This document shows positions 16,312 through 62,125 of a stretch of DNA of 64,000 bases, one piece after another. The stretch lies in the NCBI GenBank assembly GCA_039815185.1, contig JBCBZT010000009.1, positions 32,001 to 96,000 of the forward strand, read 5' to 3'. This DNA comes from Cyanobacteria bacterium P01_A01_bin.123 (GTDB lineage: Bacteria; Cyanobacteriota; Cyanobacteriia; Phormidesmidales; Phormidesmidaceae). The notes under the pieces are model-generated. The model was not told where the DNA came from. It was given only the letters and a program-made list of their open reading frames with translations, and did not search any database. Position numbers and translations under genes: made by a program. The first letter of the stretch is position 1. The number at the start of each line of letters is the position of its first letter.

Positions 16312-16472
16312 GTGGTGCAGAAAACCTTTTTCGAATCTCATAGTGGATAAATTTGACAGTCAAAAAAACAACTAAAACGTCATTATCCTAGTTCATTTTC
16401 CCGAGAAATTCAAAATCAATATCTCTTTGAGAATCCTTTATTTATAGAGGTTTCAAGAGTTTTCTGCATCAC
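16312..16472. mobile_element. Putative MITE/IS remnant (~161 bp) with 14-bp terminal inverted repeats
   Basis: GTGGTGCAGAAAAC (16312-16325) and GTTTTCTGCATCAC (16459-16472) match at 13/14 positions as an inverted pair. The interior is AT-rich and non-coding. Confidence 0.45.
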
Positions 16473-16595
16473 CAAGATCAATCGCTATAAAGCTCAGAGC
16501 TGAGTGTCTCGTTCACATCTACACCCAACTGTGCTCATAGCGTTATTCAGTAATGCTAGACAACATAATAAAGTTATATTAGGAGTTTAAAACTA

Positions 16596-18257
16596 ATGGT
16601 TACTCAATTAGTTCCGAAATTAGCTTCTGGCAGTCAAAAAATCAGCCAAACATTCAAATTTAACCTGCGATTTTTATTTATCGTTTTACTCTCCTTAGGA
16701 ATAGCTCTTCGCTGTGCGAACATTGATGGAAAAGTTTATTGGTTTGATGAATCCTTCACGTCATTGAGGATCTCTGGTTATACGGAAGAGGAGGTTATTC
16801 AGCACATTTCAGATCAAGAGATATTGACTGCTAAAGATTTTCTTAGATACCAGCAGATTAATGATGAGAAAGGTTTGGCAGATACAATTAAAGGGTTAGC
16901 TATTGAAGAACCTCAACTCACACCGCTTTACTTTATCGCCGCACGATTGTGGGCACAATGGTTTGGCAATTCTATTGTAGTAGTAAGAAGCTTATCTGTT
17001 CTGTTCAGTCTACTCATATTTCCTGTAGCTTATTGGCTTTGCTTGGAATTATTTAATTCAAAGCTAGTGGGATGGGTGGCAATTTCAACAATAGCAATTT
17101 CACCTTTACATTTGCTCTTTGCCCAAGAAGCACGTCCTTATAGCTTGTGGGTTCTTACCCTATTAATATCTAGTACTGCTCTTTTGAGGGCAATCCGACG
17201 ACAAACAAAAGTTGCTTGGATAACCTATTCGATCAGTGTTGCAATCGGGCTATATTCCTTCTTATTCTTTGGGCTCGGCATAATTAGTCACGGCATCTAT
17301 ATTTTAATCGCAGAGAGGTTTCGTTTTCGGAAAACGCTTCTAAGCTACCTGTTAGCCATATTAGTGGGCGTGATTATTTTTTCCCCTTGGATTATAGTGA
17401 TCTTGACAAATCCAAACCCCATGGTGAGTTTGGGTTCAAGAGGGGTTGAGTTGTCATTATTAGTTAAAGCGTGGATTCATAATCTGAGCCTTACTGTCTT
17501 TGACTTTGATCTAGGTTGGTGCTTTCCTATTGGCAGTTCGTATTGCCGATCTGCTTTAACCTTGAGGAATGTTTTATTATATTTGATGCTGCCCGCTTTG
17601 TGTCTAGCGGGCTATTCAATTTATTTCCTCTGTCGTCACACTCAAAGACGAGTTTGGGGCTTTGTCGTAACGATGATAGGAACTACGATAGCTTTTTTAG
17701 CCGTGCCGGATGTAATACTAGGAGGTCATCGTTCTAGTATTACCCGATATTTGTTCCCAATTTTCTTGGGCATTCAATTATCTTTTGCCTATCTTTTGTC
17801 TAGTCAAGCTTTTTCAGCTTCAGCTAATACTAAAATTCGAAAATTCTGGAAGCTTGTAGCAGCACTTTTAATCTCATTAGGAGTTTTATCCTGTATGAGG
17901 ATATCTCAAGCAGACTCTTGGTGGAACAAAGCACAGAATTATCATGTTATTCCGATGGCTCATGTGCTCAACAGTGTTGAAGCACCTTTTTTGATTTATC
18001 CAGTTTCACCTGGTATCGGTTTTGTAGGACGAGTAATGCCGCTGTTTCACGAGCTTAATCCAGAGACAAAGATTCAGTTTGTGCCTCAATCTATTGAAAC
18101 TATTAAAGTCCCGAATGGTCTTGAAAATATTTTCATATTTAACCCTTCGCAGCCAGTGATTGAGCAGTTTCAAAAGATCGATGATTACAGCATAGAGCTC
18201 GTTTTCATTAACCCGATTCATCCCAGTCCGAGACTTTGGAAAATAGAAAAGACTTAG
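16596..18257 (+). CDS. GT-C fold glycosyltransferase (GT39/ArnT/PMT-like)
   Basis: YWFDE acidic motif after TM1, PLYF, RSLSVLFS and AQEARPYSL; many TM helices; AT-rich. Confidence 0.85.
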   Translation: MVTQLVPKLASGSQKISQTFKFNLRFLFIVLLSLGIALRCANIDGKVYWFDESFTSLRISGYTEEEVIQHISDQEILTAKDFLRYQQINDEKGLADTIKGLAIEEPQLTPLYFIAARLWAQWFGNSIVVVRSLSVLFSLLIFPVAYWLCLELFNSKLVGWVAISTIAISPLHLLFAQEARPYSLWVLTLLISSTALLRAIRRQTKVAWITYSISVAIGLYSFLFFGLGIISHGIYILIAERFRFRKTLLSYLLAILVGVIIFSPWIIVILTNPNPMVSLGSRGVELSLLVKAWIHNLSLTVFDFDLGWCFPIGSSYCRSALTLRNVLLYLMLPALCLAGYSIYFLCRHTQRRVWGFVVTMIGTTIAFLAVPDVILGGHRSSITRYLFPIFLGIQLSFAYLLSSQAFSASANTKIRKFWKLVAALLISLGVLSCMRISQADSWWNKAQNYHVIPMAHVLNSVEAPFLIYPVSPGIGFVGRVMPLFHELNPETKIQFVPQSIETIKVPNGLENIFIFNPSQPVIEQFQKIDDYSIELVFINPIHPSPRLWKIEKT

Positions 18258-18407
18258 TAAACAAGTATGACGGAACTGAGAATTTCAGATATATAAATTC
18301 TAATAAAGCGATATATCTGACAACCCGTGGAGATTTTCATAAACGTAAAGGGGATCGTTGTGTCTACCGCTAAAAGCTTAGATTTTCTATAAACTCCCTT
18401 TAAGGAT

Positions 18408-19985
18408 ATGAACTATATTTATTCTAGGAAAATCATTTTCTCTTTGTCGATTATCATTCTGATTGCTGCTCTATTGCGGATAACTTTTCTGTCAGAAGTT
18501 CCTGGTGGCTTTAACTGCGACGAAGCACTTAATGGATATGAAGCTTATTCAATTCTAGAGACATCACGGGATCGCTATGGAAAGCTATTGCCACTGTTTA
18601 CCAGGGCATTTAATAGCTATCGCCCAACCTTATACATATTTGCAGCAATTCCATCTGTCAAAATCTTTGGGCTTAATGAATTTGGCGTTAGGTTCCCATC
18701 TGCATTTTTTGGAGTTTTGACTGTTTGGATGGTGTTCCTTATTGTCAAGCATGTTTTCAGCCCTAAATGGGCCTTAATCTCTGCATTTATGCTTGCGATT
18801 AATCCTTGGCATATTCATTTTAGCCGAAGTGCTTATGAAGCTAGTTTGCTACCGTTTCTTTTTTGCTTAGGATATTGGCTATTCTTAAAAAGCTTTAAGA
18901 AGCCAACATATCTAATTTTCAGTGCCATATTTTTTTCGATGAGCTTGAATACTTATCATGCGGCAAGAGTTTTTGTGCCCTTGTTTTTGATGGGTTTAAT
19001 CATTATCTATAAGAAACATATTATAGATAATTTCAAGCAGTCAATTGCTGCTTTCATAGCTTTCAACACAATTTTTATTCCCATCTTTAAATTTTGGATT
19101 TCACCACAAGGAATGGCTAGAGCAAGCCAAGTAGGTATAGAGACTAGCTTATCTAAAATTATTATCAATTACATTTCGTTTTTTAATCCGAAATACCTAT
19201 TCTGGGATGGATTTGAAGACTTGTCTTTAAATCCTGTTGGCATAGGATGTTTTTACTATTTTGAATTCGTCACAATTGGACTATGTGCATTATTTCTTGC
19301 AAAAAGAGGTAACAAGAATCAGAAAACCTTGCTATTTTGGTTGTTTCTATATCCAATACCTGCAGCATTAGTTGATACTGTAAATCCGCTAAGAACACTC
19401 GCTGGAGCACCTATATTTGCTATTCTTTCTGGGTGTGGAGTTGCAATAATTAAAAATTATTTAGAAGCCATCTTGAATCGTTCAGCCTTCAAGTTAGCAT
19501 GCATCTTTTTGGTGTCATTTATGATGTCAGGTTTTACCTACTTTTTTACTCATTATTACACCAATTATCCTCCTGAAGCATTATTTTCTTGGAAGTATGG
19601 CTTACGTGAAGCTATACAATATGCAGAAAATCACTCCTATAGCTGCGTGATTATGAGCAGCGATCGCAATAGTAATTGTTATGCGATTCATGATTTTATT
19701 TCTCATGTGCCGTTCTATACCCAGTATCCACCTGAAAAATATCAAAGATCGCCAATTTCACCATTGGTTGGGGACTCTCAAGCTAACATTTATTCCCTAG
19801 GGAAATATAGCTTAGCCTCTATTGAAAACCAAACAAAATTGAATGAAAGATGTCTCTACATCATTCGCCCAGATGAGTTGATTACCTTAGATTCTAAGGG
19901 ATATGCTTGGAAAGAGGTTTATGCTATTGAAGATAACCGCAATATTACTTATTTCAAACTCGTTGAGATTTATGATTTGAGTTGA
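18408..19985 (+). CDS. GT-C fold glycosyltransferase (ArnT/PMT-like)
   Basis: PGGFNCDEA, GLNEFGVRFPSAFFG and NPWHIHFSR motifs; polytopic; very AT-rich. Confidence 0.85.
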   Translation: MNYIYSRKIIFSLSIIILIAALLRITFLSEVPGGFNCDEALNGYEAYSILETSRDRYGKLLPLFTRAFNSYRPTLYIFAAIPSVKIFGLNEFGVRFPSAFFGVLTVWMVFLIVKHVFSPKWALISAFMLAINPWHIHFSRSAYEASLLPFLFCLGYWLFLKSFKKPTYLIFSAIFFSMSLNTYHAARVFVPLFLMGLIIIYKKHIIDNFKQSIAAFIAFNTIFIPIFKFWISPQGMARASQVGIETSLSKIIINYISFFNPKYLFWDGFEDLSLNPVGIGCFYYFEFVTIGLCALFLAKRGNKNQKTLLFWLFLYPIPAALVDTVNPLRTLAGAPIFAILSGCGVAIIKNYLEAILNRSAFKLACIFLVSFMMSGFTYFFTHYYTNYPPEALFSWKYGLREAIQYAENHSYSCVIMSSDRNSNCYAIHDFISHVPFYTQYPPEKYQRSPISPLVGDSQANIYSLGKYSLASIENQTKLNERCLYIIRPDELITLDSKGYAWKEVYAIEDNRNITYFKLVEIYDLS

Positions 19986-20120
19986 AATGTAACTGATTAT
20001 ATTTATCTGAGATAACTGATGATGATGTAACGAACTTTGCCCACGGGAATGGACTTGATCTAGCTTTGCGAATTGGAATAGCCATTGTTCTAGATGTAAT
20101 CTGAGTTGGTTCGCGTAGAA

Positions 20121-42764: not shown

Positions 42765-44702
42765 ATGGCAACTGCGATTCCCTACATTGCCCAACCCATC
42801 CTCAAAATTGATGGCAAGTCTGCGTCCGACACGCTGGTGCAAGACATTTTGCAAATCTCCGTCGAAGAGAGTTTGCATTTGCCCAGCATGTTTACCCTGG
42901 TGATTAAAAACGATCGCTTCCCCGGTCGCGATGACGACGCCGTTTGGACACACCAAAGCAGCTTTGCCATCGGTAAATCGATTGAAATTGGCTTTGTCAG
43001 CGCCGCCACCGAGTCCGACGAATTTGATGATGCCAACCAAGGCACGGTGCTGAATGGGGAAATCACCGCTATCGAAACCCACTTTACCCGCCAGTCCCAA
43101 GCACCGATTATCATTCGCGGCTACGACACCTCCCACCGCCTGCACCGGGGTCGCCAAAGCCGCTCCTTTCAAAACAAATCGGACTCCGACATTGTTAAAG
43201 AAATTGCCAAAGAGGTTGGCATCTCGACCAATACCGTGGACAGCACGGGCGGGCCATACGGCTACAACGACATCAGCGATTCTAGCGGCTACGTGTTTCA
43301 GCAAAACCAAACCAACATGGAGTTTTTGCGCCAGCTTGCCGCTCGTAATGGCTACGAGCTGTTTGTGCAAGACGACAAACTCAACTTTCGCAAACCCGCC
43401 AAAGGTGACACCCTCACCTTAGAGTGGCTAAAAGATTTGCATAGCTTTCGGGTACGGGTCAGCAGCGCCGAACAGATTAAAAGTGTGGAGGTGCGCGGTT
43501 GGGACTACAGCCAAAAGAAAGTCCTCTCCGAAACCATCAGCAGTGCCAGCAAAGTCCACACCAGCACGGACAACACCAGCACCAGCAGTGTGGTCAGCAG
43601 CCTGAAGCCCACATCGCCGTCTATGGTGGTCGTCAACCACCCGTTTGCCAAATCGACTGAGGCCAAAACCATCGCCCAGGGTCTCTATGATGAGCTTTCG
43701 GGTGAATATGTCTCCGCCGATGCTACAGCTGAGGGCAACCCCAAAATTCGCCCCGGCAAGGTGGTGAAGCTGTCAGACATGGGGAATTACAGCGGCACCT
43801 ACTACGTGACTGAAACTCGCCACCTCTTCCACGAGCGCATTTACACCACCGAATTTAGCGTGCGGGGGCTACGAGGCGGCGACTTGCTGCAAACCCTGTC
43901 TCCCCCAACCCGACTGCAACCCGGACAAACTTGCCTAGTGGGCATTGTCGCTGACAACAACGACCCTAAGGGTTGGGGGCGCGTGCGGGTGAAGTTTCCC
44001 ACCCTTACCGAAGATCACATGAGCTATTGGGCTCGGGTGGTATCGGCTGGCGCTGGCGCCAGTCGGGGGTTAGATTGTCTACCTGAAATTAACGATGAAG
44101 TCCTCGTCGCCTTTGAACATGGGGATATCCATCGCCCTTATATCGTCGGTGGCGTTTGGAACGGTAGCGATGCTCCACCGGAAAAACCTGAAAAGTCAGT
44201 CGCCGATGGGAAAGTGCGGCTGCGTACATTTAAAACCCGTACGGGGCATTCCCTGCAATTTATTGAAGAAGATAAGGACAGCAGCAAAAAAGGGGTGTAT
44301 GTTGACACCGTTTATGGCCATCAAGTTGATCTCAATGACAGCGAGAAAAAGTCGCAGATCAAAACCAAAGAAGGCCACTATATTTTGTTTGACGATAGCA
44401 ATAAAAAAATAGAAATCAAAACTAATGGCGGCCATAAAATCTTGTTAGACGAAGGCTCTAGCAAAATAGATGTAATTTCCAAAGGCAGCATAAATGTAAA
44501 ATCAGGCTCTAGCGGTAATTCTGAAAACATTGCCATTAATGGAGGAAATATTACCCTCAAGGGCAGTACTGGAATTACCCTGCAGGTGGGCAGCACATCG
44601 ATAAAGTTGACCAGCACAGGGGTCACCATTTCAGGGGCGACCATTTCGGTCAAAGCGACGGGCATTAATACCATTTCTGGCAGTATGGTCAAATTGAATT
44701 AG
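42765..44702 (+). CDS. vgrG: VgrG/Afp8-like spike protein of a contractile injection system
   Basis: Gp27-like N-terminus (GYD.SHRLHR, QQNQTNMEFL, VEVRGWD); Gp5 OB-fold DPKGWGRVRVKFP...WARV...PEINDEVLVAFEHGD; beta-helix C-terminus ending VKLN. Confidence 0.9.
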   Translation: MATAIPYIAQPILKIDGKSASDTLVQDILQISVEESLHLPSMFTLVIKNDRFPGRDDDAVWTHQSSFAIGKSIEIGFVSAATESDEFDDANQGTVLNGEITAIETHFTRQSQAPIIIRGYDTSHRLHRGRQSRSFQNKSDSDIVKEIAKEVGISTNTVDSTGGPYGYNDISDSSGYVFQQNQTNMEFLRQLAARNGYELFVQDDKLNFRKPAKGDTLTLEWLKDLHSFRVRVSSAEQIKSVEVRGWDYSQKKVLSETISSASKVHTSTDNTSTSSVVSSLKPTSPSMVVVNHPFAKSTEAKTIAQGLYDELSGEYVSADATAEGNPKIRPGKVVKLSDMGNYSGTYYVTETRHLFHERIYTTEFSVRGLRGGDLLQTLSPPTRLQPGQTCLVGIVADNNDPKGWGRVRVKFPTLTEDHMSYWARVVSAGAGASRGLDCLPEINDEVLVAFEHGDIHRPYIVGGVWNGSDAPPEKPEKSVADGKVRLRTFKTRTGHSLQFIEEDKDSSKKGVYVDTVYGHQVDLNDSEKKSQIKTKEGHYILFDDSNKKIEIKTNGGHKILLDEGSSKIDVISKGSINVKSGSSGNSENIAINGGNITLKGSTGITLQVGSTSIKLTSTGVTISGATISVKATGINTISGSMVKLN

Positions 44703-44710
44703 TGGGGCAG

Positions 44711-44730
44711 GGACGCGATTAATCGCGTCC
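44711..44730. repeat. REP-like palindrome (ACGCGATTAATCGCG core), copy 2
   Basis: GGACGCGATTAATCGCGTCC is a perfect palindrome between vgrG and the DUF4280 gene. Confidence 0.7.
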
Positions 44731-44759
44731 GTACAGGGTAGATAGCAGGAGAGACAGGG

Positions 44760-45152
44760 ATGGGATTTCAGGTGGTGATGGGAGCGGTGTTGCAGTGCAG
44801 TTTTGGTTCAGCACCGACTAGTTTGATTGTGATTCCCAAGGGGCTCCCGGTGACGGCAGTAGGGCCGTTTGCAGCTACCATCATGGACTATGCCCCGATT
44901 GTGAATATTCCCACTTTTGCCATGTGCAGTTCTTTGGCGAACCCAACGGTCGCTTCGGCAACCGCAGCCGCTAGTGGGGTGTTGACACCTATGCCCTGTG
45001 TCCCTGTGATTCCGGCTCCATGGAGTCCAGGATGTTCCAAGGTGCAAATCAATAATTTCTTGGCCCTCAACGATTCGTCAAAGTGTTACTGCACGTGGGG
45101 GGGAACAATTTCGATTACCAGCCCTGGACAATATACGGTTCAAATTCCCTGA
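44760..45152 (+). CDS. DUF4280 PAAR-like spike-tip protein
   Basis: GAVLQCSFG, NIPTFAMC, PMPCVP, W.PG and C.C.WGG.I motifs. Confidence 0.9.
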   Translation: MGFQVVMGAVLQCSFGSAPTSLIVIPKGLPVTAVGPFAATIMDYAPIVNIPTFAMCSSLANPTVASATAAASGVLTPMPCVPVIPAPWSPGCSKVQINNFLALNDSSKCYCTWGGTISITSPGQYTVQIP

Positions 45153-46326: not shown

Positions 46327-48039
46327 ATGTTGAAAAATCCTGCCACTCGCTACCGTCCCTTCGCTCCGGTTGATTTGAGCGATCGCACCTGGCCCAACCA
46401 AACCATCGACCATCCCCCGATCTGGCTGAGTACCGACCTGCGTGACGGTAACCAAGCCTTGATTGAACCGATGAACCGCGATCGCAAGCTGCGCCTCTTC
46501 CAACTTTTGATTGACATTGGCTTCAAGGAAATTGAGGTAGCCTTTCCCTCCGCCTCTCAAACCGATTTTGATTTTGTCCGTACGTTGATCGAGCAAGACC
46601 TGATTCCCGATGACGTTACCATTCAGGTGTTGACCCAAGCCCGCGATCATCTGATTCGCCGGACGTTTGAAGCCCTACACGGAGCAAAGCGAGCGATCGT
46701 GCATGTGTACAACGCCACGGCTCCTGTATTTCGGCGGACGGTCTTCAATCGCGATCGCGCCGCTACTGTTCAACTTGCCGTAGATGCAGCCACTTTGATC
46801 AAAACCTTGGCTGCTCAGCAGCCAGAGACCGATTGGCGGTTTCAATATTCCCCTGAAACCTTTACGGCGACGGAGCTAGATTTTGCCAAAACCATCTGTG
46901 ACGCGGTGTTGGATGTGTGGCAACCCACCCCTGACCATAAAGCCATCATCAACCTACCCGCCACGGTAGAAGTCTCTACCCCCAATATCTTTGCCGATCA
47001 GGTGGAGTGGATACACCGCCATCTCGCCCGCCGCGACAGCGTCGTGCTGAGCGTCCACAACCACAACGATCGCGGGTCAGGCGTTGCCGCTGCTGAGTTG
47101 GGTCAACTGGCGGGGGCAGATCGGGTGGAAGGTTGCCTGTTTGGTCACGGTGAACGCACAGGCAACGTGGACATCGTCACCCTGGCATTGAACCTCTACA
47201 CCCAGGGGATTCACCCCGGTTTGGATTTTTCTGACATTAATGAAGTGGCCCGCATTGTTGAAGACTGTACTCAATTGCCCATTCATCCCCGTCACCCCTA
47301 TGTTGGTGATTTGGTGTTTACGGCATTCTCCGGGTCTCACCAAGATGCGATCAAGAAAGGCTTAGCCGCGCAGTCTGCCAATGGACTTTGGGAAGTCCCC
47401 TATTTGCCCATCGATCCGGCTGATGTGGGGCGCACCTATGAGTCAGTGATTCGGGTTAACAGCCAGTCGGGTAAAGGCGGAATTGCTTATCTCCTAGAGC
47501 GTGACTTTGGCTTGAGTTTACCCCGACGGTTGCAGATTGAATTTAGCCATGTGGTGCAGCGAGAACTCGATGCCCACGGCAAAGAGATGAACGGTGATGC
47601 ACTCTATAGCCTGTTTGATCGAGAATATGTACAGGCTAAGGAACCCTTTGCATACCTGAGTTATCAGTGGGATGCAGACAAAGGCTTGCTCGTTCTCAAT
47701 CTCCAACTCAACGGCCAACCTTGCCGCCTTTCTAGCCAAGGCCCAACGCCCGTGGCTGCATTACTCACCGCGTTGAATCTAGGGATTCGTATCCACCATC
47801 AATCCAATCAGCTTGTGGTTACTCGTGGGGGGGAACAACCTGATGCGATCGCTTACATTGAATTAGCGATCGACGGCTTCCACGGCACCCACTATGGCGT
47901 TGGCATCCACCCCGATGGCACTATTGCTGAATTACTAGCCGTGTTGAGCAGTCTCAACCGCGCCCTCCGCCGTGTCGATGCGGAAGCCCAAGCTAAGCTG
48001 CTAAAGCAGGGATTGTCTGACCGCCATTTGGTCTACTAA
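46327..48039 (+). CDS. leuA: 2-isopropylmalate synthase (type 2 / yeast-actinobacterial type)
   Basis: [57 protein letters not shown] and [11 protein letters not shown] motifs. Confidence 0.95.
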
Positions 48040-49435: not shown

Positions 49436-49605
49436 GGCCGTTTCCCCAGATGTTCAACGCTCTAGACTCGCTTGAAGCAATCTTCCTAAAAATCGAGCTT
49501 CTACACCGATGTAATTACCTTGAAGGATTAAACCGTTATCCAGGTTAGGATTCTCTGAGAAAACGCTGAAAATTCTCGGTTAGCGACAGGCAAGGCAGGG
49601 GTTAA

Positions 49606-49836
<231 letters not shown>

Positions 49837-49841
49837 CTAAT

Positions 49842-50447
49842 TTATCGTCTGCGCCCGCCAGACACTGGAATGGGTGGGCCGGCGATCGCGTTTAGATTCT
49901 GACACCGCAACACGTCGTTAAAACTCATACTCCGCCGACCTTCAATCCGGGCAACCGTTTCGATCGCGCTAGCCAAATGTTGGGCAGCTTCGGCTCGACT
50001 GTAGCCCCGTCGGGCTGCGACTTGAATCGCAGTTTCATCGGCGGTAATAGCGTCGCTGGGACCTCGGCTGTCACGCCACACGCGCGTGGCTGCGATCGCA
50101 GTTACGCCCCCGGCCATTAGCATGCCGACCGCATTGCCCTGAAAGGTTTCAAATAGGGTAGCTGCCACCCCCGCGATCGCCACCCCACGCGGCACATCAA
50201 GTTTAAACGGGTTGGTTCCTGTCACCCAGCCAATTTGCTGCAAAAACAGCAGATCCCGTTCTGGAATAGACAGCCTGCCCCACAGGTCGAAATTAATCGA
50301 AATCGGATAGGTTTGCTTCCAAGGTCGGCGAGATTCAGTAGTAATCACTTGAGGTTGAGCCTGGTTGCTGCGGATACGGGTTTTCATCCAGCCTGAAGCA
50401 GGCATCAGCTCTCGCAGCCGAGGAATTTCTTGATCGGGATTAACCAT
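49842..50447 (-). CDS. DUF3318 family cyanobacterial membrane protein
   Basis: EI.RL..LMPASG.M, INFDLW, ADE.AI..A.RRGY and RCQNL motifs. Confidence 0.85.
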   Translation of the reverse strand: MVNPDQEIPRLRELMPASGWMKTRIRSNQAQPQVITTESRRPWKQTYPISINFDLWGRLSIPERDLLFLQQIGWVTGTNPFKLDVPRGVAIAGVAATLFETFQGNAVGMLMAGGVTAIAATRVWRDSRGPSDAITADETAIQVAARRGYSRAEAAQHLASAIETVARIEGRRSMSFNDVLRCQNLNAIAGPPIPVSGGRRR

Positions 50448-50469
50448 GGCAAACAACGAACGCTCCAGC

Positions 50470-51675
50470 TCATAGCAACAGGGTAGCAGGGGAATCATCA
50501 AAAAACTTTTCAATGATCCTTTCGTAAACACTGCAAAGCTCGTGAATATGAGCGATGGGAATATGCTCACCAATCTGGTGCATCGTATTGTCTAAAGGCC
50601 CATACTCAACCGTGACGCAATGGGGCACGATAAACCGAGCATCGGTGATGCCACCGTCGGTGCTGAGGCGGGGGCGGCGGCCAGAAACCTCTTCAACAAC
50701 CCCCTGGACTAGGGCAACAAATTGATCTTCAGGATTAGTACGAAAGGCTTCACCACTCACCCGGAAGCGGATGTCGTATTCAGTGCCATATTCGTGGGCA
50801 ATGGGCTCAATTGTGTCACGGATCAACTGTTGCAGACCCGCCCCGGTTTGCTCGTCATTAAAGCGGATGTTGAAGCGCAGATTAACGTGAGCTGGAATCA
50901 CATTTTCCGCACAACTGGCGGTTTCAAATTGGGTGATTTCCAGGTTAGAGGGTTCAAACCACTCATTGCCATTATCCAGCGGTAAATTCTGCAACGCCGT
51001 TGCCATGGCCACTGCTGCCGGGACTGGATTCAGCACGTTGCGCTGATAGGCAACGTGTCCTTGTTTTCCCTTGACGGTGATAAAGGTGTTGATACTGCCC
51101 CGGCGACCAATATGCACACAATCGCCCATTTCAGACGGATTAGTCGGCTCACCAACAATGCAGGCATCTATTGTTTCGCCGCGCTGTGCCAAATATTCCA
51201 TCACGGGTTTAGTCCCATTGATGGCCTCATGTTCTTCATCGCCAGTAATGATGAAGCTGAACGATCCCTTGAGGTTATCCTGCCGTTTCGCCAGCCAAGC
51301 TGAAACAGCGGCAATAAAGCAACCGATGCCCGCTTTCATATCGACAGTGCCCCGCCCCCACAAAATACCGTCTCTAATTTCAGCTTTATAGGGATCTATA
51401 TCGCCCCAACGCTGGCGATCGCCCTCTGGGACGACATCAGTATGTCCGGCAAAAGCCAGGTTTGGGCTTGCGGTTCCTAACCTGGCGTAGAGATTATCCA
51501 CTTCATAACTGCCAGGGTGATTGTGAAATTTCAAACGCTCACAGGTGAAGCCCAGTCGTTCTAGGTGACGTTGAACAACATCCAACCCGCCTTCTCTGTC
51601 CGGTGTCACGCTTGGCCTTTGGATCAGTTCTTGTGTCAACGCAACTGGATCAAGCACACGAATTTCAACAGTCAT
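50470..51675 (-). CDS. dapE: Succinyl-diaminopimelate desuccinylase (M20)
   Basis: RPSVTP, NLYAR, FAGHTDVVP, GRGTVDMK, TGDEE, GEPT, GRRGS, GKQGHVAY and FNIRFND motifs. Confidence 0.92.
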   Translation of the reverse strand: MTVEIRVLDPVALTQELIQRPSVTPDREGGLDVVQRHLERLGFTCERLKFHNHPGSYEVDNLYARLGTASPNLAFAGHTDVVPEGDRQRWGDIDPYKAEIRDGILWGRGTVDMKAGIGCFIAAVSAWLAKRQDNLKGSFSFIITGDEEHEAINGTKPVMEYLAQRGETIDACIVGEPTNPSEMGDCVHIGRRGSINTFITVKGKQGHVAYQRNVLNPVPAAVAMATALQNLPLDNGNEWFEPSNLEITQFETASCAENVIPAHVNLRFNIRFNDEQTGAGLQQLIRDTIEPIAHEYGTEYDIRFRVSGEAFRTNPEDQFVALVQGVVEEVSGRRPRLSTDGGITDARFIVPHCVTVEYGPLDNTMHQIGEHIPIAHIHELCSVYERIIEKFFDDSPATLLL

Positions 51676-51702
51676 GGCCAACTCTCCTGAAGGACTTTAT
51701 AT

Positions 51703-52605
51703 TTAGGCCGCCTGCGTTGCTGCGGTCTGTTCGGTAACCAGATGTTTATAGGCGTCAATCAGACGCGTCGTGATCGGGCCAAACGGTTCAAACTGAACTT
51801 GATCAACCCGACTAACCGACTCAATTTCACAGGTGGTACCCGTTAGAAACACCTCTTGAGCCTGGGCCAGTTCTTCCAGTTTGATTTGACGCTCGAAAAC
51901 TGGGATACCTAGTTTTTCAGCCAGTTTAATGATGGTTTGCCGAGTAATGCCGTTTAAGAAACAATCCGGTATTGGCGTCAGCAACGCCCCATCAATCACC
52001 AGAAATACATTGGATGTTGTCGATTCTGCAACCAGCCCTCGATAGTCCAGCATGAGGGCGTCATCAAACCCTTGTTTGATGGCTTCATCCTTGCTCATAG
52101 TACAGATCGGGTAGAGGCAGGCGGCTTTGCTAACCGTCGGTGCCGTCGTTGGATCCGGTTTGCGCCAGGTGACCTGACTGGTGAGTTTCAGTGGCTTTTT
52201 GGCGGTATTGGTAAACAGCGTTGTGGGGAATGACCAGGCGGCAATGCCGAGGCAAATGGCGGTATCGGGTGCATAGACTCGCAACTTTTCACTGCCCCGC
52301 CAGGCAAAGTGGCGAATGTAGCCCACCTCGATAGGGTCTTTGTCCAACAGATCGTAGGTGGCCCCGACAATAGCGTCTGTCGAATACGGAATCTCAAAGC
52401 CAAGGATATTTGCCGACTGATGCAAGCGCTGAAGATGCTCGCTCAGTAAAAACGGTTTGCCATTATAAATACGGATCCCTTCAAACACACTGCTGGCGTA
52501 GTGCAACCCGTGGGTCAGCGGGTGAATTGCGGCGTCTTTCCAAACGGTAATGTTGCCATTCAGCCACAAAAATCCCTCTTTTTGATCAAACGGTAGTAGG
52601 GACAT
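51703..52605 (-). CDS. Class IV PLP aminotransferase (BCAT/IlvE-like, diverged); candidate DapC replacement
   Basis: THGLHYASSVFEG, HLQRL, PLP Lys in SKAACLY, ALMLDYRG.VAE, FLNGITR and FLTGT motifs; located between dapD and dapE. Confidence 0.85.
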   Translation of the reverse strand: MSLLPFDQKEGFLWLNGNITVWKDAAIHPLTHGLHYASSVFEGIRIYNGKPFLLSEHLQRLHQSANILGFEIPYSTDAIVGATYDLLDKDPIEVGYIRHFAWRGSEKLRVYAPDTAICLGIAAWSFPTTLFTNTAKKPLKLTSQVTWRKPDPTTAPTVSKAACLYPICTMSKDEAIKQGFDDALMLDYRGLVAESTTSNVFLVIDGALLTPIPDCFLNGITRQTIIKLAEKLGIPVFERQIKLEELAQAQEVFLTGTTCEIESVSRVDQVQFEPFGPITTRLIDAYKHLVTEQTAATQAA

Positions 52606-52683
52606 AAAAACTTCCGATGCCATCGAGATCTGTACACACCAAAACTCAAAGGGAGAAGGAATGAGGGAATATTCCTACCTCCC

Positions 52684-53556
52684 CTAATCCCGCAACAGCT
52701 CATTAATAGAGGTTTTGGAACGCGTTTTGTCATCAACCGTTTTCACAATAACATTGCAGTATAGGCTGGGGCCGGGGGAACCATCTGGCAGCGGTTTGCC
52801 GGGTAATGTGCCGGGCACGACAACGGCATAGGGCGGAATCTCGCCGTAGAAAATCTCACCCGTCGCACGATTCACAATTTTTGTGGATTGGCTGAGGTAA
52901 ACGCCAATGGCAAGCACTGCCCCCTCGCGCACAATCACGCCTTCGGACACTTCGCTTTGCCCACCGACAAATACATTGTCTTCAATGATGACGGGGTTAG
53001 CCTGTAGCGGTTCAAGCACCCCCCCAATCACAACACCCGCAGACAGGTGACACCCTTTGCCGATTTGGGCGCAGGAACCAACAGTCACGTAGCTATCAAC
53101 CATGGTGTCGGTATCGACATAGGCGCCAACGTTGACAAAGCTGGGCATCAACACAACATTGCTTGCCACGTAGGAACCCCGGCGCACCACACAATTGGGC
53201 ACTGCCCTAAACCCGGCATGGGCATAGTCAGCTTGGGTCCAGCCCGAAAACTTGGAGGGCACTTTGTCAAACCACGGTGCATCCCCCAGTTTGGGATCTT
53301 TCAGGCCACTGGCAATGATGGCCGAGTCGTTTAACCGGAAGGATAACAACACGGCCTTTTTGAGCCACTGATTGACAACCCAGTCGTTGCCCGATTTCTC
53401 GGCAACGCGATACTGACCGCTGTCGAGACCGCTGACAGCGGCTTCAATCGCATCACGCGTTTCGCCTGATGTTTCGGCGCTGATGGTGCTGCGGTTTTCC
53501 CAAGCTGTATCAATAATGTTGATCAGGCTTTGCGTGTTCGTAGCTTCTGTGCCCAT
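52684..53556 (-). CDS. dapD: Tetrahydrodipicolinate N-succinyltransferase
   Basis: [53 protein letters not shown] and [10 protein letters not shown] motifs. Confidence 0.96.
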
Positions 53557-53753
53557 TAATCTTATGCTGTTTACCCGTGCAAACCGAGAGATGTCAATCT
53601 TTAAGATGGTATCGCTAACGGGGAGTCGGGGGAAGGGGCTGCGATCGCTCATCAAAGCCGCAATATCGAGAAAACATACGGTGGATTGGGCTAGCTACAG
53701 AAGATTGGGTTAGCTACAGAATAAGACGGCTTGAATTTTCTGCGCCATTAGGC

Positions 53754-54659
53754 TCATCCTTGTCCAAACAACAACCAAACGCCCCCCAAAGCCACCAAAA
53801 CCCCTAAGATGGCTCGCAAACTAATGCGATCGCCCATCAACGCCGCAATCGGCAACACAAACAGCGGACTTGTTGCCGCCAACGCCTGGGCGATGCCCGT
53901 CGCCGCATATTTCAACGCAGTCTGCTGCAACCAAATCGCCAAATAAGTGCCCAAAACCGCCGCTACAAGTATCACCGCGACCAGTCGCAATGACCGCAAG
54001 GGTTGAAAATCAGCGTTTAGCCTGCCCCGCCACAGCAATATCCCCAACAGTACGGCAATTCCCCCGGCTAACCGCAGTAGCGTACTCCACAATGGATCAA
54101 CAGCGGTCTCAGCCAATGCTGCCCGCGACAGCACTGCCCCTATCGCCTGACCCATAGCCGCCAGTAACCCGAAGACGATCCCCTGCAACGACCGGGGGCG
54201 ATCGCCAAGTACCGCTGGCACCCGTTCTGAAATCACCCAGCCGACCCCGGTCAACGTTAACGCAATCCCTGCCCAGGTGTTAAGTGATAGGGTCTCACCT
54301 AAGAAAATACCCGCTAAAAATGCCGCAATCGGTGGGGCCAAAGACTCCATTAACAACACTCGACGGGGGCCTAGCTGATTTAATGCTGCAAAGTAGGCTG
54401 TGTCTCCCAGGCCAATGCCAATGGCCCCGCTGAGTAACAACAGCATCATGGTATTGCCATCTATCCCGACCGGACGGTTACTTTGCAGCCATAGGGTGAG
54501 CAAAATGAATGCGATCGCAAAGCAGCCTTTTGCAAAATTCAGCACTGAGGGAATGAGATGTCGTCCCAGTTTGCCAAAAATCACCGTCGAAACTGCCCAC
54601 AAAAAAGCGGCTGTCAACGCCGCAATTTCTCCCCGAAATGCCACAAATGGTTCAGCCAA
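53754..54659 (-). CDS. DMT/EamA family transporter
   Basis: Ten hydrophobic segments; GEIAALTAAFLWA, GIGLGDT and SPLFVLP motifs. Confidence 0.88.
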   Translation of the reverse strand: MAEPFVAFRGEIAALTAAFLWAVSTVIFGKLGRHLIPSVLNFAKGCFAIAFILLTLWLQSNRPVGIDGNTMMLLLLSGAIGIGLGDTAYFAALNQLGPRRVLLMESLAPPIAAFLAGIFLGETLSLNTWAGIALTLTGVGWVISERVPAVLGDRPRSLQGIVFGLLAAMGQAIGAVLSRAALAETAVDPLWSTLLRLAGGIAVLLGILLWRGRLNADFQPLRSLRLVAVILVAAVLGTYLAIWLQQTALKYAATGIAQALAATSPLFVLPIAALMGDRISLRAILGVLVALGGVWLLFGQG

Positions 54660-54926
54660 CTGAGCGACTCCTGCTTGATTTCCCTTTAGATATTTTCATG
54701 TGCCCCCTCGATCCGACAAACTACAGTGGATGAAGACTAATTGCCATTGGGCGATTGCACGGCTAACAATTTTGGGTTTTAGACTTCGTCGTGAGCGTTC
54801 AGCCGCCCCAGAGGGGCTACGATTTGCGATGTCGAGATAGATCAGCATTAAATTTTCAACAACTTACGGCTAGGACACTATTAGGCGTCTGTAGCATTGG
54901 GAAGTAACTCCGTTGGAGCGTTGACA

Positions 54927-55487
54927 ATGGATTTCCCTATTCGTTCGAATCGACTCTATTTTGCTGTGTTGTCAGTCGTATTCTCATTGGTTGGCATTAA
55001 GTCTGCGGCTGCCACAGAATCCTTTCACCCAACTCCGTTATCCTCCGATGCTCAATTCAAGGCATCACTGATCGCTCAAGAAGCCTGTCCCCGCGAGTAT
55101 CAAGAACGTCAACCCTATGCCCGCGTGATCACTGAAGATGACCCGCTGTTAGTCCGGGCGACACCAAATGGAAGCGTTATCGGTGCGATTCCTAAGGGGT
55201 GGGCAGTCGTCACCCTAGAGCTTAACAGTAATGGTCAGTGGATACGCATCACCAGTCACTGGGGTGAGGTAACCGAGTCTGATGGCACGCTTTTTGGCAG
55301 CGCTCCTGATTTCCGGAGTGGTTGGGTAGCAACCCGCTATCTAGAAGATTTGGGCGAATTTTGCGAAAAGCCGATGGCCATGTTGGAAAGTTCTCTCGCT
55401 GCAAGTGCCCAGGCTCAGCAATACATTGCCAATGAAGACTGGCTGCGATTGGGCGATCGCATTGCGTTAGTCCAACCCCAAGCCTAG
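54927..55487 (+). CDS. Secreted SH3b-like domain protein
   Basis: Signal peptide; L.VRATP...VIG.I..G, W.RI and GWVATRYL SH3b pattern; two flanking Cys. Confidence 0.65.
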   Translation: MDFPIRSNRLYFAVLSVVFSLVGIKSAAATESFHPTPLSSDAQFKASLIAQEACPREYQERQPYARVITEDDPLLVRATPNGSVIGAIPKGWAVVTLELNSNGQWIRITSHWGEVTESDGTLFGSAPDFRSGWVATRYLEDLGEFCEKPMAMLESSLAASAQAQQYIANEDWLRLGDRIALVQPQA

Positions 55488-55490
55488 GCC

Positions 55491-57725
55491 ATGGCAAATC
55501 GGTCTATTGCTTACCATGAAAGCCGACTGGCGGCGATTCTGCGAGCGGCAGCAAAAGCTCCAGGTAATCGAGCCCGGTTTCAATCCGCAGGGCTGATGGT
55601 GCCGAGTTCAGGTTCTGGTATGGAACTGGTGACGGATTGGATGCAAAAGTTTAATGCCCTCGAACCGTTATCTAAAGCAACGGTTCGACGCAACCCTGGG
55701 GCGTTTTTAGCTGGGGTGTCTGATATTGTCTATCGCGGCAGCACCAGTGGTAGCCAAGACCGGGCCTATATTTACTTCGCAGATCAGCTCTGGAACCAGC
55801 AGCGGCAATGGTCTCGGGATCATTTTTTATCCTGGTGGGGTATTGATCAGCACACGCCCATTGTGACGGTAGCCAGTCGGTTACAGCCGACACGGTTAGG
55901 AGACCTTGCAATTGTAGGCCCCATTAATGCCACCCTAATTGATCGGCTGATGGCGGCGCTATCGGGGGATAAACCTGTGGCCCTGCGGGGGTATCCCAGT
56001 CGATTGGTCGAAGTCGCGAGTTTGTTAGTGGGGAAACCGTTGCCCGCGATCGCAGCTGTCATTTGTACGGGGGAACTGCTCTTTGATCAACAGCAGACTC
56101 TACTAGCGCGGGTCTTCAACGCCCCTGTGATCAACGAGTATGGCTGCCAGGAAACCGGCATCTTTGCCATGACTTGCCCAGAGCAGGGGCGACTCCACTT
56201 AGACGATGAACGCTGTTTTTATGAAGTGATTGGGGGTCATTTAGTCACAACCGATTTGTGGAACGAAACTATGCCCTTGGTGCGTTATCAATGCGGCGAT
56301 ACTCTCATCCTCCACGAAGACGCTTGTCCCTGCGGACGCCCTAGTCTGACGGTAACCCTACTGGGTCGAACAGACGATCAGATTCAAACCATGGCAGGGG
56401 CGGTACCCATCGGTAGTGTCGCCATGCCTGCGATACCGGGACTGTTGAGTTACCGGGTGCAGCGCCAAACAGCAGATAGCATCACTGTCTGGGTACGCCC
56501 CGATCCAGAAACGCCTCAGTTTTCGCCCCAACCCCTAGAGCATTGGGTCAAGACGACGCTGGGTGATCTGGCCGTTGATCTGCTGATTGAAGAAGACGCC
56601 CCCCGTAATGAAATCACCGAAGGCATTCGGTGGGATAGCGAAACCTGGTTTCGAGCTGTCACCCAAGGGCAGATGGGGAGTCGCTTAGCCATGAATCCTC
56701 TGCCGCACGGGGATGGCCAGGAAACGGCCCGTGTGTTGGTTGAGTTGTTAAATCCGGCTGTGATTGCAGTCGGGGCGCTACCCCCATCAACTCAGGCGCT
56801 GGTTGATCATCTGGCCCAAAGCCCCGTCATCGGTAATGTGGCCATTGAGCAGATGAAGAATCGGGTGCTGCTGTTAGCGAGTAGCTGTATGGCCAATGGC
56901 AGTCGCGCCCAAGCCCTCTACGACCGAGCGGTTGAACGACTGAGCATGTTGGGCGTACCTATGCCTGCGTCGATACAAACAGACCTGCTGATTCCCACGT
57001 TGCATTTACCGTCTACATCAGCCAGAGCGATTTGGTCTCGGGTGATGACGCTACATACCTCGGTACAGCTAGATCGGTTCAACGTTCATCATCTGCTAGC
57101 GGCGTTTGAAGGGGCGTTAAAGGTGCGATCGCCCCAGGATCGGGCGCCCTTAGCGCGATCGCTGTCGCCTGTGCTAGCGGTTCTGGTTGGGGATTTGACG
57201 TTTTGGGCACCCCAGTTTAGCTACGGCATCTTGGCCCACTGGGTAGAATTGATGCAGGGGCTTGATTTGCTGGAGCCGATCAAGCAGCCTCAGAACTTTG
57301 CCCAGGTTTGGCAAAATTGGCGTTGGAGTCTCCATCGGGGACGGTCGGATAGTGCTGAATGGTTGACTGAATTGAAAGCTAGGGCAAAATCGTCTGAAGA
57401 GAAAACGCGCTGTCAAATTGAGCAGGGCTACAAGGCTACGGCCAGCAGACACCCCTTGAACCCTAGTCCCTGGCTTGAGCGGATTGAAACCCATGCTCAA
57501 GTTCCGCTTAGTTCCCTTGAGCAAGATAAACCATCTGCCGATTTAACCTCCTGGATGCCGATTGTGCGTGCCCTGGTGGAACCGCTCTATGAAGATCAGC
57601 AGCCTGAACTGGCTTATCGCTGTTTGGTAGCTGCCTCGGTTGCGTCTCGACAGGGTTCGGCTTTTGATCGGCTAACGGAGACTGTTAACCGTAAGCAAGC
57701 GGTTTTGAAGGATTATTGTCATTAA
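55491..57725 (+). CDS. Phenylacetate-CoA ligase/CapK-like adenylate-forming enzyme with long C-terminal extension
   Basis: GSTSGS, GYPS, TGE, EYGCQETG, TDLWNETMPLVRYQCGD, CPCGR and GRTDD motifs, followed by about 370 unassigned helical residues. Confidence 0.75.
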   Translation: MANRSIAYHESRLAAILRAAAKAPGNRARFQSAGLMVPSSGSGMELVTDWMQKFNALEPLSKATVRRNPGAFLAGVSDIVYRGSTSGSQDRAYIYFADQLWNQQRQWSRDHFLSWWGIDQHTPIVTVASRLQPTRLGDLAIVGPINATLIDRLMAALSGDKPVALRGYPSRLVEVASLLVGKPLPAIAAVICTGELLFDQQQTLLARVFNAPVINEYGCQETGIFAMTCPEQGRLHLDDERCFYEVIGGHLVTTDLWNETMPLVRYQCGDTLILHEDACPCGRPSLTVTLLGRTDDQIQTMAGAVPIGSVAMPAIPGLLSYRVQRQTADSITVWVRPDPETPQFSPQPLEHWVKTTLGDLAVDLLIEEDAPRNEITEGIRWDSETWFRAVTQGQMGSRLAMNPLPHGDGQETARVLVELLNPAVIAVGALPPSTQALVDHLAQSPVIGNVAIEQMKNRVLLLASSCMANGSRAQALYDRAVERLSMLGVPMPASIQTDLLIPTLHLPSTSARAIWSRVMTLHTSVQLDRFNVHHLLAAFEGALKVRSPQDRAPLARSLSPVLAVLVGDLTFWAPQFSYGILAHWVELMQGLDLLEPIKQPQNFAQVWQNWRWSLHRGRSDSAEWLTELKARAKSSEEKTRCQIEQGYKATASRHPLNPSPWLERIETHAQVPLSSLEQDKPSADLTSWMPIVRALVEPLYEDQQPELAYRCLVAASVASRQGSAFDRLTETVNRKQAVLKDYCH

Positions 57726-59709: not shown

Positions 59710-60038
59710 TAGAGGCGTCAACAACCCGCCAGCAGTCTCGCCATCAAAATAGCGCCGCAGAACTAGAACGCCTGTCGGGTAGGTAGAGACACCTGGATAA
59801 CGTTGAAAATTGCTTAATGACTCTGCCTGCTTCTGCTTTGACTGGATAGGATGAAGATGTCTTCAACCCAGAGGATCCTATGGTTCACACTCAAGAGAAC
59901 AGGATTTTACGCCGGTCATGCCCCTAAATTTGCCGTGGGTTTCAAAGCAAGCCTGTGGGGCGATCGCCTCTCCTCGGAGTCTAGCCGTTAATGCGATCGC
60001 TAAAAAAAATCTGGATTCGTGTTTTTGAGTAAAGATAG

Positions 60039-60845
60039 GTGCAGAAATTGATCACATATCATACTTACAAACCCAATAAGTACTTATCGAATTTTGTTAA
60101 ATATTATTGGCAGCTTGAACTTAATTCAAACTTGCAAACAGCTCATGCCGAAAGGGTGATTCCCTCTGGCGAACTGCAAATAATATTTCACTACAGAACC
60201 CCGTTTAGAGAAATTAGCAAGCACAATCAAAGCCTCATCCAGCCACAGTGCTTGATTTGTGGACAGCAAACGGAATATAAAGACGTCATCACTGCACCGG
60301 GCTCGGTGGGAATGCTTGCTGTCGTATTTTACCCCTATGCACTCAGCGCTTTTTTCCCAAATCCGGTTAGTGAATTTACTAATCAAAGTATTGCCCTGGA
60401 TAATTTCTTTCAATCAGAAACTAAAGAACTTCAGGAACGTATTATCGAGGCTGATGATATTCGTTTACGCATTCTGCTAGTCGAAAACTTCTTGCTTAAT
60501 AGATTATCTATACCTAATCGCTTCTCTATTGCCAGGGAAGCCGTTAATATGATTGCCGGAGCAAACGGACAAATTACTATTAGTGAAGCAGCTCGCAAGC
60601 TAAATATCAGTAAACGGCAGTTCGAAAGAATATTTTTGGAAAATGTCGGGGTGTCGCCAAAGAAGTTTGGTCGTATTATCAGGTTGAATACCGCCATCAA
60701 ACTTTTCAAGAGGGCTGACTCTTTAACAACGCTTACCTATGAGGCTGGATATTTTGATCCATCCCATTTGATTCGCGACTTCAGAGAATTTACCGGTTTG
60801 TCTCCCAAAGCGTTTTTTAGATTCCCTTGCCAGATACCAGAATAA
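60039..60845 (+). CDS. AraC-family regulator (DUF6597-type N-terminal domain)
   Basis: P..YL..FVKYYW, VIPSG, S.RQFER.F...VGVSPK and GYFDPSHLIRDFREFTGLSP motifs. Confidence 0.9.
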   Translation: MQKLITYHTYKPNKYLSNFVKYYWQLELNSNLQTAHAERVIPSGELQIIFHYRTPFREISKHNQSLIQPQCLICGQQTEYKDVITAPGSVGMLAVVFYPYALSAFFPNPVSEFTNQSIALDNFFQSETKELQERIIEADDIRLRILLVENFLLNRLSIPNRFSIAREAVNMIAGANGQITISEAARKLNISKRQFERIFLENVGVSPKKFGRIIRLNTAIKLFKRADSLTTLTYEAGYFDPSHLIRDFREFTGLSPKAFFRFPCQIPE

Positions 60846-60922
60846 CGTCGCGTTCTTACAATTTTCTTTAGCAGGCTTGAGATACATTGCAGACATACGC
60901 CTCATCGACCAAGGATTATGTC

Positions 60923-62125
60923 ATGCGAATCAAAAATGAACTACTCAAGCAAATTAAACACCATATCTATGAATTATCTGTGAATATCGGCGAAAGGCCA
61001 ACCGGCTCAGCGGCAAATCACAGCGCAGAGAATTATATTAAGCAGGTCTTTGTCCAAAACGGGTTTCAGGTCAAATTACAGAGATTTAACTGCATCGATT
61101 GGGAGAAAAATGAAGCGACCTTAAACGTTGGGAATACTGAAGTGTCTGTTGAACCTTCACCATATTCGTTGCCCTGTGATATTCAAGCTGACATCGAGGT
61201 GATAGAAACCCTTTTTCAACTGGAGAAAGCTGATCTGGTGGACAAAATCGCTGTATTATGCGGTGAACTAACCCAAGAGTCACTAATGCCGAAAAACTTC
61301 AGGTTTTATAATCCTGAATACCATCAAAGAATCATTAATCTGCTTGAAGAAAAGACCCCTGCAGCAATACTAACGACTAGCTTGAATGACAACCACCTGA
61401 CGCCTGTATTTGAAGATGGTGACTTCAATATTCCATCTGCTGTATTTTTTGAAAATGATAAAGACAGGGTTAGACAAAGCGACTTGCCGATTCATTTAAA
61501 GATCAGCAGCAGCAGGCATAAAGCAGTCGGCGCGAATGTTATTGCTCGGAAAAATCAGACTAATGAAAATAAATTTGTTATCACTGCCCACTTTGATACT
61601 AAGCCAGGAACACCGGGTGCGCTGGATAACGCTGTAGGTGTTGCTGTATTGCTGACGCTATCAGAGATGTTGAAAGATACGATGCCGGTACATGTTGGCG
61701 TTGAACTAGTTGCTTTCAATGGTGAAGATTACTTCTCTATTCCGGGACAAATGGCTTATCTTGATACATACAGCAGTGAATTTAATAAGATTAAGCTTGC
61801 CATAAACTGCGATGGATTAGGATTGAAAAATAGTACAACGGGTGTATCTTTGATGGAATGTTCGGAAAATTATGTTGCCCATATTGAATCAATCAATCAG
61901 TCTTTTAGCAATATTGAAAAACTATCCCCTTGGTATCAAGGAGATCACATGCTATTTGCCTCGGCACAAGTCCCGACCCTTGCGATAACGTCCACCGGAA
62001 TATTTGAGCTGATGGATACTATTATCCATACCCAGAACGATAAACTAAACTTGGTTGATCCAGAATTGATTGGTGAAGTTTGCCTCTTCTTACAGCAGAT
62101 TATAAATTCGAGCAATTTAGACTAA
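60923..62125 (+). CDS. M28-family metallopeptidase with PA-like insert
   Basis: IGERPTGS, TAHFD, PGALDNAVG, FNGED, INCDG, GDH and HTQND motifs. Confidence 0.88.
   Translation: MRIKNELLKQIKHHIYELSVNIGERPTGSAANHSAENYIKQVFVQNGFQVKLQRFNCIDWEKNEATLNVGNTEVSVEPSPYSLPCDIQADIEVIETLFQLEKADLVDKIAVLCGELTQESLMPKNFRFYNPEYHQRIINLLEEKTPAAILTTSLNDNHLTPVFEDGDFNIPSAVFFENDKDRVRQSDLPIHLKISSSRHKAVGANVIARKNQTNENKFVITAHFDTKPGTPGALDNAVGVAVLLTLSEMLKDTMPVHVGVELVAFNGEDYFSIPGQMAYLDTYSSEFNKIKLAINCDGLGLKNSTTGVSLMECSENYVAHIESINQSFSNIEKLSPWYQGDHMLFASAQVPTLAITSTGIFELMDTIIHTQNDKLNLVDPELIGEVCLFLQQIINSSNLD

Follow-up and report, generated by a model that had tools for sequence, protein, structure and literature searches.

Three adjacent genes of Cyanobacteria bacterium P01_A01_bin.123, which code for a DapD-family acyltransferase, a class IV aminotransferase and a DapE-family deacylase, form a cassette that was never found together with dapL, the gene for LL-diaminopimelate aminotransferase, among 173 genomes of the family. 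The cassette is located in a stretch of 64,000 nucleotides (positions 32,001 to 96,000 of contig JBCBZT010000009.1), which is referred to as the window. Our reading is that the cassette excludes dapL and replaces it as a predicted N-acetyl route to LL-diaminopimelate (LL-DAP), and we assign a probability of about 0.58 to this reading as a whole. We consider the trio to be a real, conserved and probably essential acyl-diaminopimelate cassette.

Mutual exclusion of cassette and dapL

DapL has been given as the enzyme of this step in cyanobacteria (PMC7133116). One set of 173 family genomes was surveyed for both dapL and the cassette genes. A DapL above the cut-off of TIGR03542 is encoded in 134 of them and cassette genes occur in 23 (the aminotransferase in 20, dapD in 22 and dapE in 22, one dapE being a 64-aa fragment), and there is no genome that has both. 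Exactly one system was found in 115 of the 116 high-quality genomes (101 + 14). Neither system was found in 16 genomes, only one of which, G162, is of high quality. Within genus g4, dapL is absent from all 22 genomes and cassette genes are present in 18, the remaining four genomes being 65-86% complete. In an RpoB tree, the carriers are found in four separate places, each of which adjoins dapL-bearing genomes. It seems that one whole genus-level group plus three other lineages run the acyl route in place of DapL.

The genome that hosts the window is 99.99% complete, with 5.99% contamination. A search of this genome for dapL had been proposed in the original prediction, and no DapL was found: the best match to TIGR03542 scores 154.9, below the cut-off of 364.7, and a DapL from the same genus, used as query, matched only paralogues with 22-25% identity. 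No remnants of dapL were detected around the cassettes or in the host genome, and Ddh was not found in the latter. The host does have dapF and argD. Overall, dapF occurs in 22 of the 23 carriers, and the sole exception is 76% complete. We consider it very likely from these distributions that the cassette replaces DapL, and we are highly confident that it has a role in lysine and diaminopimelate biosynthesis.

Two native class I/II paralogues of the DapL2-like type pass NCBI models that are named LL-diaminopimelate aminotransferase (PRK09276 with 515 vs 507, PRK07366 with 707 vs 486). If these made LL-DAP, the cassette would be free to serve a secondary metabolite, a use that the original prediction had also suggested. 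However, such paralogues are shared by carriers and non-carriers, with at least one in each of 30 genomes, yet just 1 of 116 high-quality genomes is without both dapL and the cassette. In addition, no biosynthetic cluster genes are conserved next to the cassette. Paralogues as the source of LL-DAP are thus very improbable, and repurposing for a secondary metabolite is unlikely in view of the mutual exclusion with dapL.

Gene order and genomic position

The description of three tightly spaced, co-directional genes between an EamA gene and a DUF3318 gene was confirmed. The aminotransferase and dapE are separated by 27 bp, dapE and the DUF3318 gene by 22 bp, and the EamA gene and dapD by 197 bp. 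A contig from another study (run X5) covers positions 50104-55500, from the DUF3318 gene to beyond the EamA gene, at ~96% identity; this rules out an assembly chimera as the origin of the gene order. The synteny extends to other genomes, as had been suggested for checking. The aminotransferase occurs in 20 family genomes. In 15 of these a single contig carries the ordered trio, in three dapD and the aminotransferase are together while dapE is elsewhere, and in two the locus ends at a contig break. The aminotransferase directly follows dapD in all 18 family genomes whose assembly covers this junction. In three of these 18, the cassette is interrupted behind the aminotransferase, and dapE has been relocated but kept (L238, L239 and L242 in G074, G085 and G078). 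An apparent truncation of dapE in G092 is a scaffold gap, and a frameshift in G192 is found in an assembly that is 68% complete. The EamA and DUF3318 genes are adjacent to the cassette in none of 24 other carrier loci checked, which indicates that neither belongs to the cassette unit.

In three genera, and with three different flanks, the cassette is found at the position of dapL. It is located downstream of a nitroreductase gene in all three carriers of genus g14, as is dapL in four of four cases (g3, G005 and G013). In G163 it adjoins a HAD gene that flanks dapL in five of six g18 genomes, the sixth beginning at a contig end. In the host genome it adjoins the DUF3318 gene as dapL does in G001, in inverted orientation relative to dapL. 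A genome with dapL beside the same flank was found neither for g4 nor for G534, a carrier that does not belong to the family sample. The topology of the DapL tree follows the genera, so that dapL looks vertically inherited. Repeated in-place replacement of dapL is a simpler history than ancestral linkage with reciprocal loss. Horizontal spread of the cassette is not proven: the G163 cassette nests among those of g4 (support 98/99), but the approximately unbiased test does not reject monophyly of g4 (p 0.187), and the between-genus distance ratios of the cassette (1.4-2.1) are only somewhat below those of a control enzyme (2.0-2.3).

The original prediction had counted a single highly iterated palindrome 1 (HIP1) site in about 3 kb, and this count is correct. 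At the genome rate, 3.5 sites are expected in these 3.1 kb, which is not significant when taken alone (P(<=1)=0.14). When 11 other carrier loci are combined, HIP1 is about fourfold depleted, with 6 sites in 35.9 kb of cassette vs 88 in 123.9 kb of flank; owing to their relatedness, these loci are not independent. The GC content of the cassette, overall and at third codon positions, is that of the neighbouring genes. Of 12 carriers, 10 have the exact pattern of a conserved 12-bp promoter-like motif upstream of dapD; it is found in none of 29 dapL upstream regions, and once in the 8.09-Mb genome. The motif moves together with the cassette and may function as its promoter. No riboswitch was indicated by an Rfam match within 48-56 kb of the window, nor did a comparison of cassette and dapL upstream regions yield a common element, as it matched flanking genes only.

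The aminotransferase and dapD were found in none of 361 genomes sampled outside the family, though named records elsewhere contain proteins of the clade. All named homologues of the cassette proteins are cyanobacterial (Leptothoe, Adonisia, Leptolyngbya and unclassified bins). The nearest non-cyanobacterial relatives of DapD (~70% identity) and DapE (~52%) are alphaproteobacterial where named, and no DapD relatives could be confirmed in viral contigs. A donor with the same gene order was sought and not found: neither dapD nor dapE occurs near any of 79 metagenomic ilvE loci of the alphaproteobacterial type, full flanks being available for 28 of 80 loci.

The acyl pocket of DapD and the supply of succinyl-CoA

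Succinyl recognition by E. coli DapD has been attributed to Gly163, Arg187 and Glu189, where S. aureus DapH has Val, Asn and Val (PMC10403215, citing Beaman 2002). We mapped these positions (E. coli numbering) on E. coli DapD and three DapH-type acetyltransferases and compared 40 clade sequences with 81 outside sequences, which are relatives of the alphaproteobacterial type. The replacements G163V and R187Q occur in 40 of 40 clade sequences and in none of the 81 outsiders, all of which have Gly163, Arg187 and Glu189. Position 160 is Ala in the clade (with one Ser) and Gly in all outsiders. The three acetyltransferases have Val/Ile, Asn and Val at positions 163, 187 and 189, and Ala at position 160. 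Compared to the acetyl triad Val-Asn-Val, the Val of the cassette enzyme matches, its Gln is Asn-like, and its Glu is a mismatch. Further changes that are fixed in the clade are A186G and M204I. R104, R112, M124, D141, S148, G166 and E169, which we take to be the residues that contact the ring substrate, are kept in all clade and all outside sequences. The third succinyl determinant, Glu189, is also kept in 40 of 40 clade sequences. It has been proposed as the base for the substrate amine (PMC3281039), and this role may explain its retention.

A SucC above the cut-off was found in none of the 22 family carriers tested; among 14 non-carriers, one has it, and control searches of Synechocystis and Synechococcus elongatus gave no SucC. 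Three carriers and two non-carriers were negative for SucA, methylmalonyl-CoA mutase and two CoA-transferase families were not found in five carriers, and no alpha subunit of 2-oxoacid:ferredoxin oxidoreductase exceeded the cut-off in nine genomes. A weak Ligase_CoA match in the host genome is to a 922-aa protein, presumably of the acyl-CoA-ligase/GNAT type.

As two of the three succinyl residues are lost and the searched succinyl-CoA sources are missing in the hosts tested, an N-acetyl route is likelier than an N-succinyl one. We consider it fairly likely that acetyl is the acyl group and predict that DapD is an acetyltransferase. The term 'succinylase', which the original prediction had applied to the cassette, is probably wrong. 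An ordinary succinyl route, in which the class IV enzyme would be an N-succinyl-diaminopimelate aminotransferase, would agree with DapD and DapE passing succinylase models, with the retention of Glu189 and of R177/R178, H193 and Y196 in DapE, and with the presence of SucC in G534. This is nevertheless rather unlikely in view of the invariable G163V and R187Q and the lack of a detected succinyl-CoA source in the family carriers. A different short acyl group, such as propionyl or malonyl, might be suspected because the Val/Gln/Glu pocket fully fits neither reference triad and because A186G and M204I are fixed as well. However, Val163 is the residue of acetyltransferases, the loss of Arg187 speaks against an anionic acyl group, and acetyl-CoA is the most available acyl donor, which makes such a group improbable.

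The class IV aminotransferase

The best model for the aminotransferase is PRK07544, the alphaproteobacterial IlvE, with a score of 372.4, under the cut-off of 396. TIGR01122 (ilvE) is passed with 248.7 vs 245.55 and PRK06606 is missed as well. The identity to alphaproteobacterial IlvE is ~55%. Only class IV models match the protein, and none of fold type I (class I/II or III), to which the known DapC, ArgD and DapL belong. The predicted structure (AlphaFold, mean local confidence pLDDT 90) is of fold type IV, with a Foldseek template-modelling score of 0.88 to branched-chain aminotransferases (BCATs). In a quick tree, 51 sequences form a clade among IlvE of the alphaproteobacterial type, on a stem of 0.88 changes per site (SH support 99). 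The original prediction had asked for a separate housekeeping ilvE; a canonical one with the motif GTAAK is present on contig C23, and the class IV gene is not the only ilvE of the genome.

The active site was mapped by alignment with solved BCATs and with Table 2 of PMC8320979. With respect to the residues given in that table, the equivalents that bind the carboxylate and glutamate in L-specific enzymes are kept (Y31, F36, R40, Y95, R97, the pyridoxal phosphate lysine K159, Y164 and E193), and the side-chain pocket is changed (G108R, N110Y, W126F/V, Y129T, A258T and A259C). The motifs quoted in the original prediction as differing from typical BCATs are present. All 51 members have GTTC (one GTSC) for the GTAA beta-turn, LR(V/I)Y for the MGV of the O-pocket loop, as well as F/V and T/S/A for W126 and Y129 in the interdomain loop. 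A signature of 13 sites, which were selected from the same comparison of clade and outsiders that scored them, is complete in 51 of 51 members and reaches at most 5 of 13 in any of 220 outsiders. The aminotransferase is under purifying selection, with a ratio of nonsynonymous to synonymous substitutions (dN/dS) of 0.025-0.057 in the four more distant pairs for which it could be computed.

A pocket that is larger and has gained an arginine would suit a long substrate bearing a carboxylate at its far end, such as N-acyl-2-amino-6-oxopimelate. Its fixed, altered pocket makes the protein a good candidate for the DapC function. We consider it likely that the class IV enzyme is the transaminase of the route and predict it to be an N-acyl-diaminopimelate aminotransferase. 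Of the earlier idea of a new N-succinyl-diaminopimelate aminotransferase, the DapC candidate with an altered pocket stands, but an N-acetyl substrate is likelier for it than an N-succinyl one.

The cassette might also make diaminopimelate with most of the transamination performed by the native ArgD or another aminotransferase, which would leave the class IV enzyme redundant or in a side role. ArgD is present in the host, transaminases are described as often nonspecific (PMC7311316), and an acyl route that lacks a recognised DapC is reported for many genomes (PMC5615194). Yet the aminotransferase follows dapD in all 18 assembled cases, is under purifying selection, has a pocket that became fixed on its long stem, and is not needed as IlvE. 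We consider a main role for ArgD unlikely. Still less probable is a D-specific class IV enzyme that makes meso-diaminopimelate directly and bypasses DapF. ESTxSN and GTTCE do resemble motifs that we associate with D-amino-acid transaminases, but R40, Y95, R97, F36 and Y31 of the L-specific BCAT P-pocket are kept, nearly all carriers have dapF, and the D-amino-acid transaminase model TIGR01121 scores 124.5 vs a cut-off of 277.45. This makes D-specificity highly improbable.

A fusion of DapE with the aminotransferase was sought among six longer relatives, which either are fused to LeuA, to AlaS or to different domains, or have the class IV match alone; none of them matches a DapD or DapE model. 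P0242, P0262, P0275 and P0291, each a single-member cluster, are class IV aminotransferases fused to LeuA, to domains that are ATP-grasp-like as read from sequence, or to AlaS.

DapE

Residues of DapE (E. coli numbering) were counted in 29 clade and 109 outside sequences. The metal ligands as well as R177, R178, H193, Y196, N244, R257, S180 and S289 are all kept where covered. Fixed changes are found in the vicinity of the metal site. The residues which bind the diaminopimelate moiety, as far as they are given in PMC5919655 and PMC4012986, are kept save for T324I, and Ile at this position is also found in 9 of the 109 outsiders. Loop V reads T(D/E)GGITD in all 27 sequences that cover it, vs TTGGTSD. 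K174H is found in 29 of 29 clade sequences, whereas all 109 outsiders have Lys. Other fixed changes are P197Q, N243E, T321D/E and S325T. One may speculate that the acidic residue of loop V stands in for the absent succinyl carboxylate.

Proposed route and points against it

The proposed route would begin with acetylation of tetrahydrodipicolinate by the DapD-family enzyme, at the expense of acetyl-CoA. Amination of the acetylated product, with glutamate as donor, would fall to the fold-type IV enzyme, and removal of the acetyl group to the DapE-family enzyme. The native DapF and then LysA/MurE would lead to lysine and peptidoglycan. The reverse Vmax of DapL is 17-63 times the forward one in eight orthologues (PMC4176475, Table 2). 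With DapL being much faster in reverse, a cell that kept both systems would return LL-DAP and waste acetyl-CoA in a futile cycle. It can be supposed that dapL is quickly lost once the cassette arrives, which could explain why no genome has both.

Several observations weigh against an N-acetyl route that replaces DapL. The genomes surveyed are related and are not independent samples. G162, which is 94% complete, has neither dapL nor cassette genes, due either to an assembly gap or to a third solution, and the two DapL2-like paralogues pass models that carry the name of the activity. With respect to the acyl group, Glu189 is retained where acetyltransferases have Val, DapD scores only 91.5 with the DapH model TIGR03532, far under its cut-off of 231.75, and G534 has SucC and yet the same Val/Gln version of DapD. 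The class IV enzyme still passes the ilvE model TIGR01122, if narrowly, and its closest pair has a dN/dS of 0.24. Finally, replacement of T325 of H. influenzae DapE by Ala or Ser lowers kcat 25-50-fold (PMC4012986). DapE of the clade has Ile at the equivalent position, which argues for a changed substrate or for lower efficiency.

A more far-reaching version of the acetyl route is that a mobile trio, rebuilt for acetyl-CoA and with the first fold-type IV N-acyl-diaminopimelate aminotransferase, displaced the essential dapL, right at the dapL locus and in several independent events, in cyanobacteria unable to make succinyl-CoA. This we put forward only tentatively, as the odds are somewhat against it.

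Features of the window

The cassette genes, their neighbours and the upstream motif are listed in Table 1.

Table 1. Positions of the cassette genes, the flanking genes and the upstream motif in the window.
Feature	Position	Strand	Description
dapD	53556-52684	minus	290 aa; TIGR00965 382.2 bits, above cut-off 375.4; predicted acetyltransferase
Class IV aminotransferase	51703..52605	minus	300 aa from likely start at 52605 (ORF start possible at 52623); PF01063
dapE	51675-50470	minus	401 aa; M20 deacylase family; TIGR01246 393.9, above cut-off 361.8
EamA gene	54659-53754		Flank on dapD side; not a cassette member
DUF3318 gene	50447-49842	minus	PF11780; native flank, not a cassette member; adjoins dapL in same-genus G001 (locus L051)
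12-bp promoter-like motif	53606..53617	minus	Upstream of dapD; putative function

A gene for a 2-isopropylmalate synthase (LeuA) of the 'yeast/proteobacterial' type, with a TIGR00970 match over the cut-off, is located at 46327-48039, 2.4 kb from the cassette, and is possibly another borrowed amino-acid gene. A dispersed repeat of ~105 bp with strong hairpins (49605-49710) has 216 BLAST matches in the genome, 174 of which are at least 80 bp long, and resembles miniature inverted-repeat transposable elements or repetitive extragenic palindromes. A VgrG-like spike/baseplate gene and a DUF4280 gene at 42765-45152 suggest a contractile injection system locus. The stretches 16001-20000 and 60001-62000 are low in GC (34-41% vs ~51%).

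Comparison with known systems

No description of this cassette system was found in literature titles and the beginnings of abstracts; dapL distribution tables in supplements could bear on novelty. An alternative DapE has been reported in PMC13759103, the main text of which mentions neither dapC nor cyanobacteria. A gap at the DapC step has been noted in 360 genomes (PMC5615194), and the cassette clade itself does not account for those. What would be new in comparison to the known acyl-diaminopimelate pathway is the predicted acyl switch and the fold-type IV enzyme in the DapC slot. If assays agree, the cassette would represent a natural switch of acyl specificity within the succinyltransferase family, and thus a direct test of the structural rule from 2002, an enzyme class that is new to the DapC step, and a clear example of a three-enzyme pathway that co-adapts to the CoA pool of its host. 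The names 'N-succinyltransferase' and 'branched-chain aminotransferase', which the cassette proteins carry in public records, would then be wrong.

With the succinylase branch of Proteobacteria (DapD, DapC/ArgD, DapE) the cassette shares the DapD and DapE families, including their catalytic and ring-substrate residues. It differs in two of the three succinyl determinants, in hosts without the searched succinyl-CoA sources, and in a transaminase of fold type IV instead of I. With the acetylase branch of Firmicutes (DapH, PatA/DapX, N-acetyl-diaminopimelate deacetylase) it would share the chemistry, and its DapD has Val163, Ala160 and an amide at position 187 in common with DapH. However, this DapD is of the proteobacterial type, being under the DapH cut-off and having kept Glu189, and is combined with a class IV aminotransferase and a DapE-type deacylase, so that the similarity would be convergent. 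The aminotransferase resembles alphaproteobacterial IlvE (PRK07544) in sequence, in fold, and in its pyridoxal phosphate lysine and alpha-carboxylate site. In contrast to that enzyme, it stays below the PRK07544 cut-off, has its O-pocket loop, interdomain loop and beta-turn fixed otherwise, is tied to dapD, and occurs in hosts that keep another ilvE. Finally, cyanobacterial DapL (TIGR03542, of the Synechocystis sll0480 type) bridges the gap between tetrahydrodipicolinate and LL-DAP that the cassette is predicted to fill, and shares its genomic position with the cassette in three genera. However, DapL does so in one step and the cassette would need three, and in none of the 173 genomes do the two occur together.

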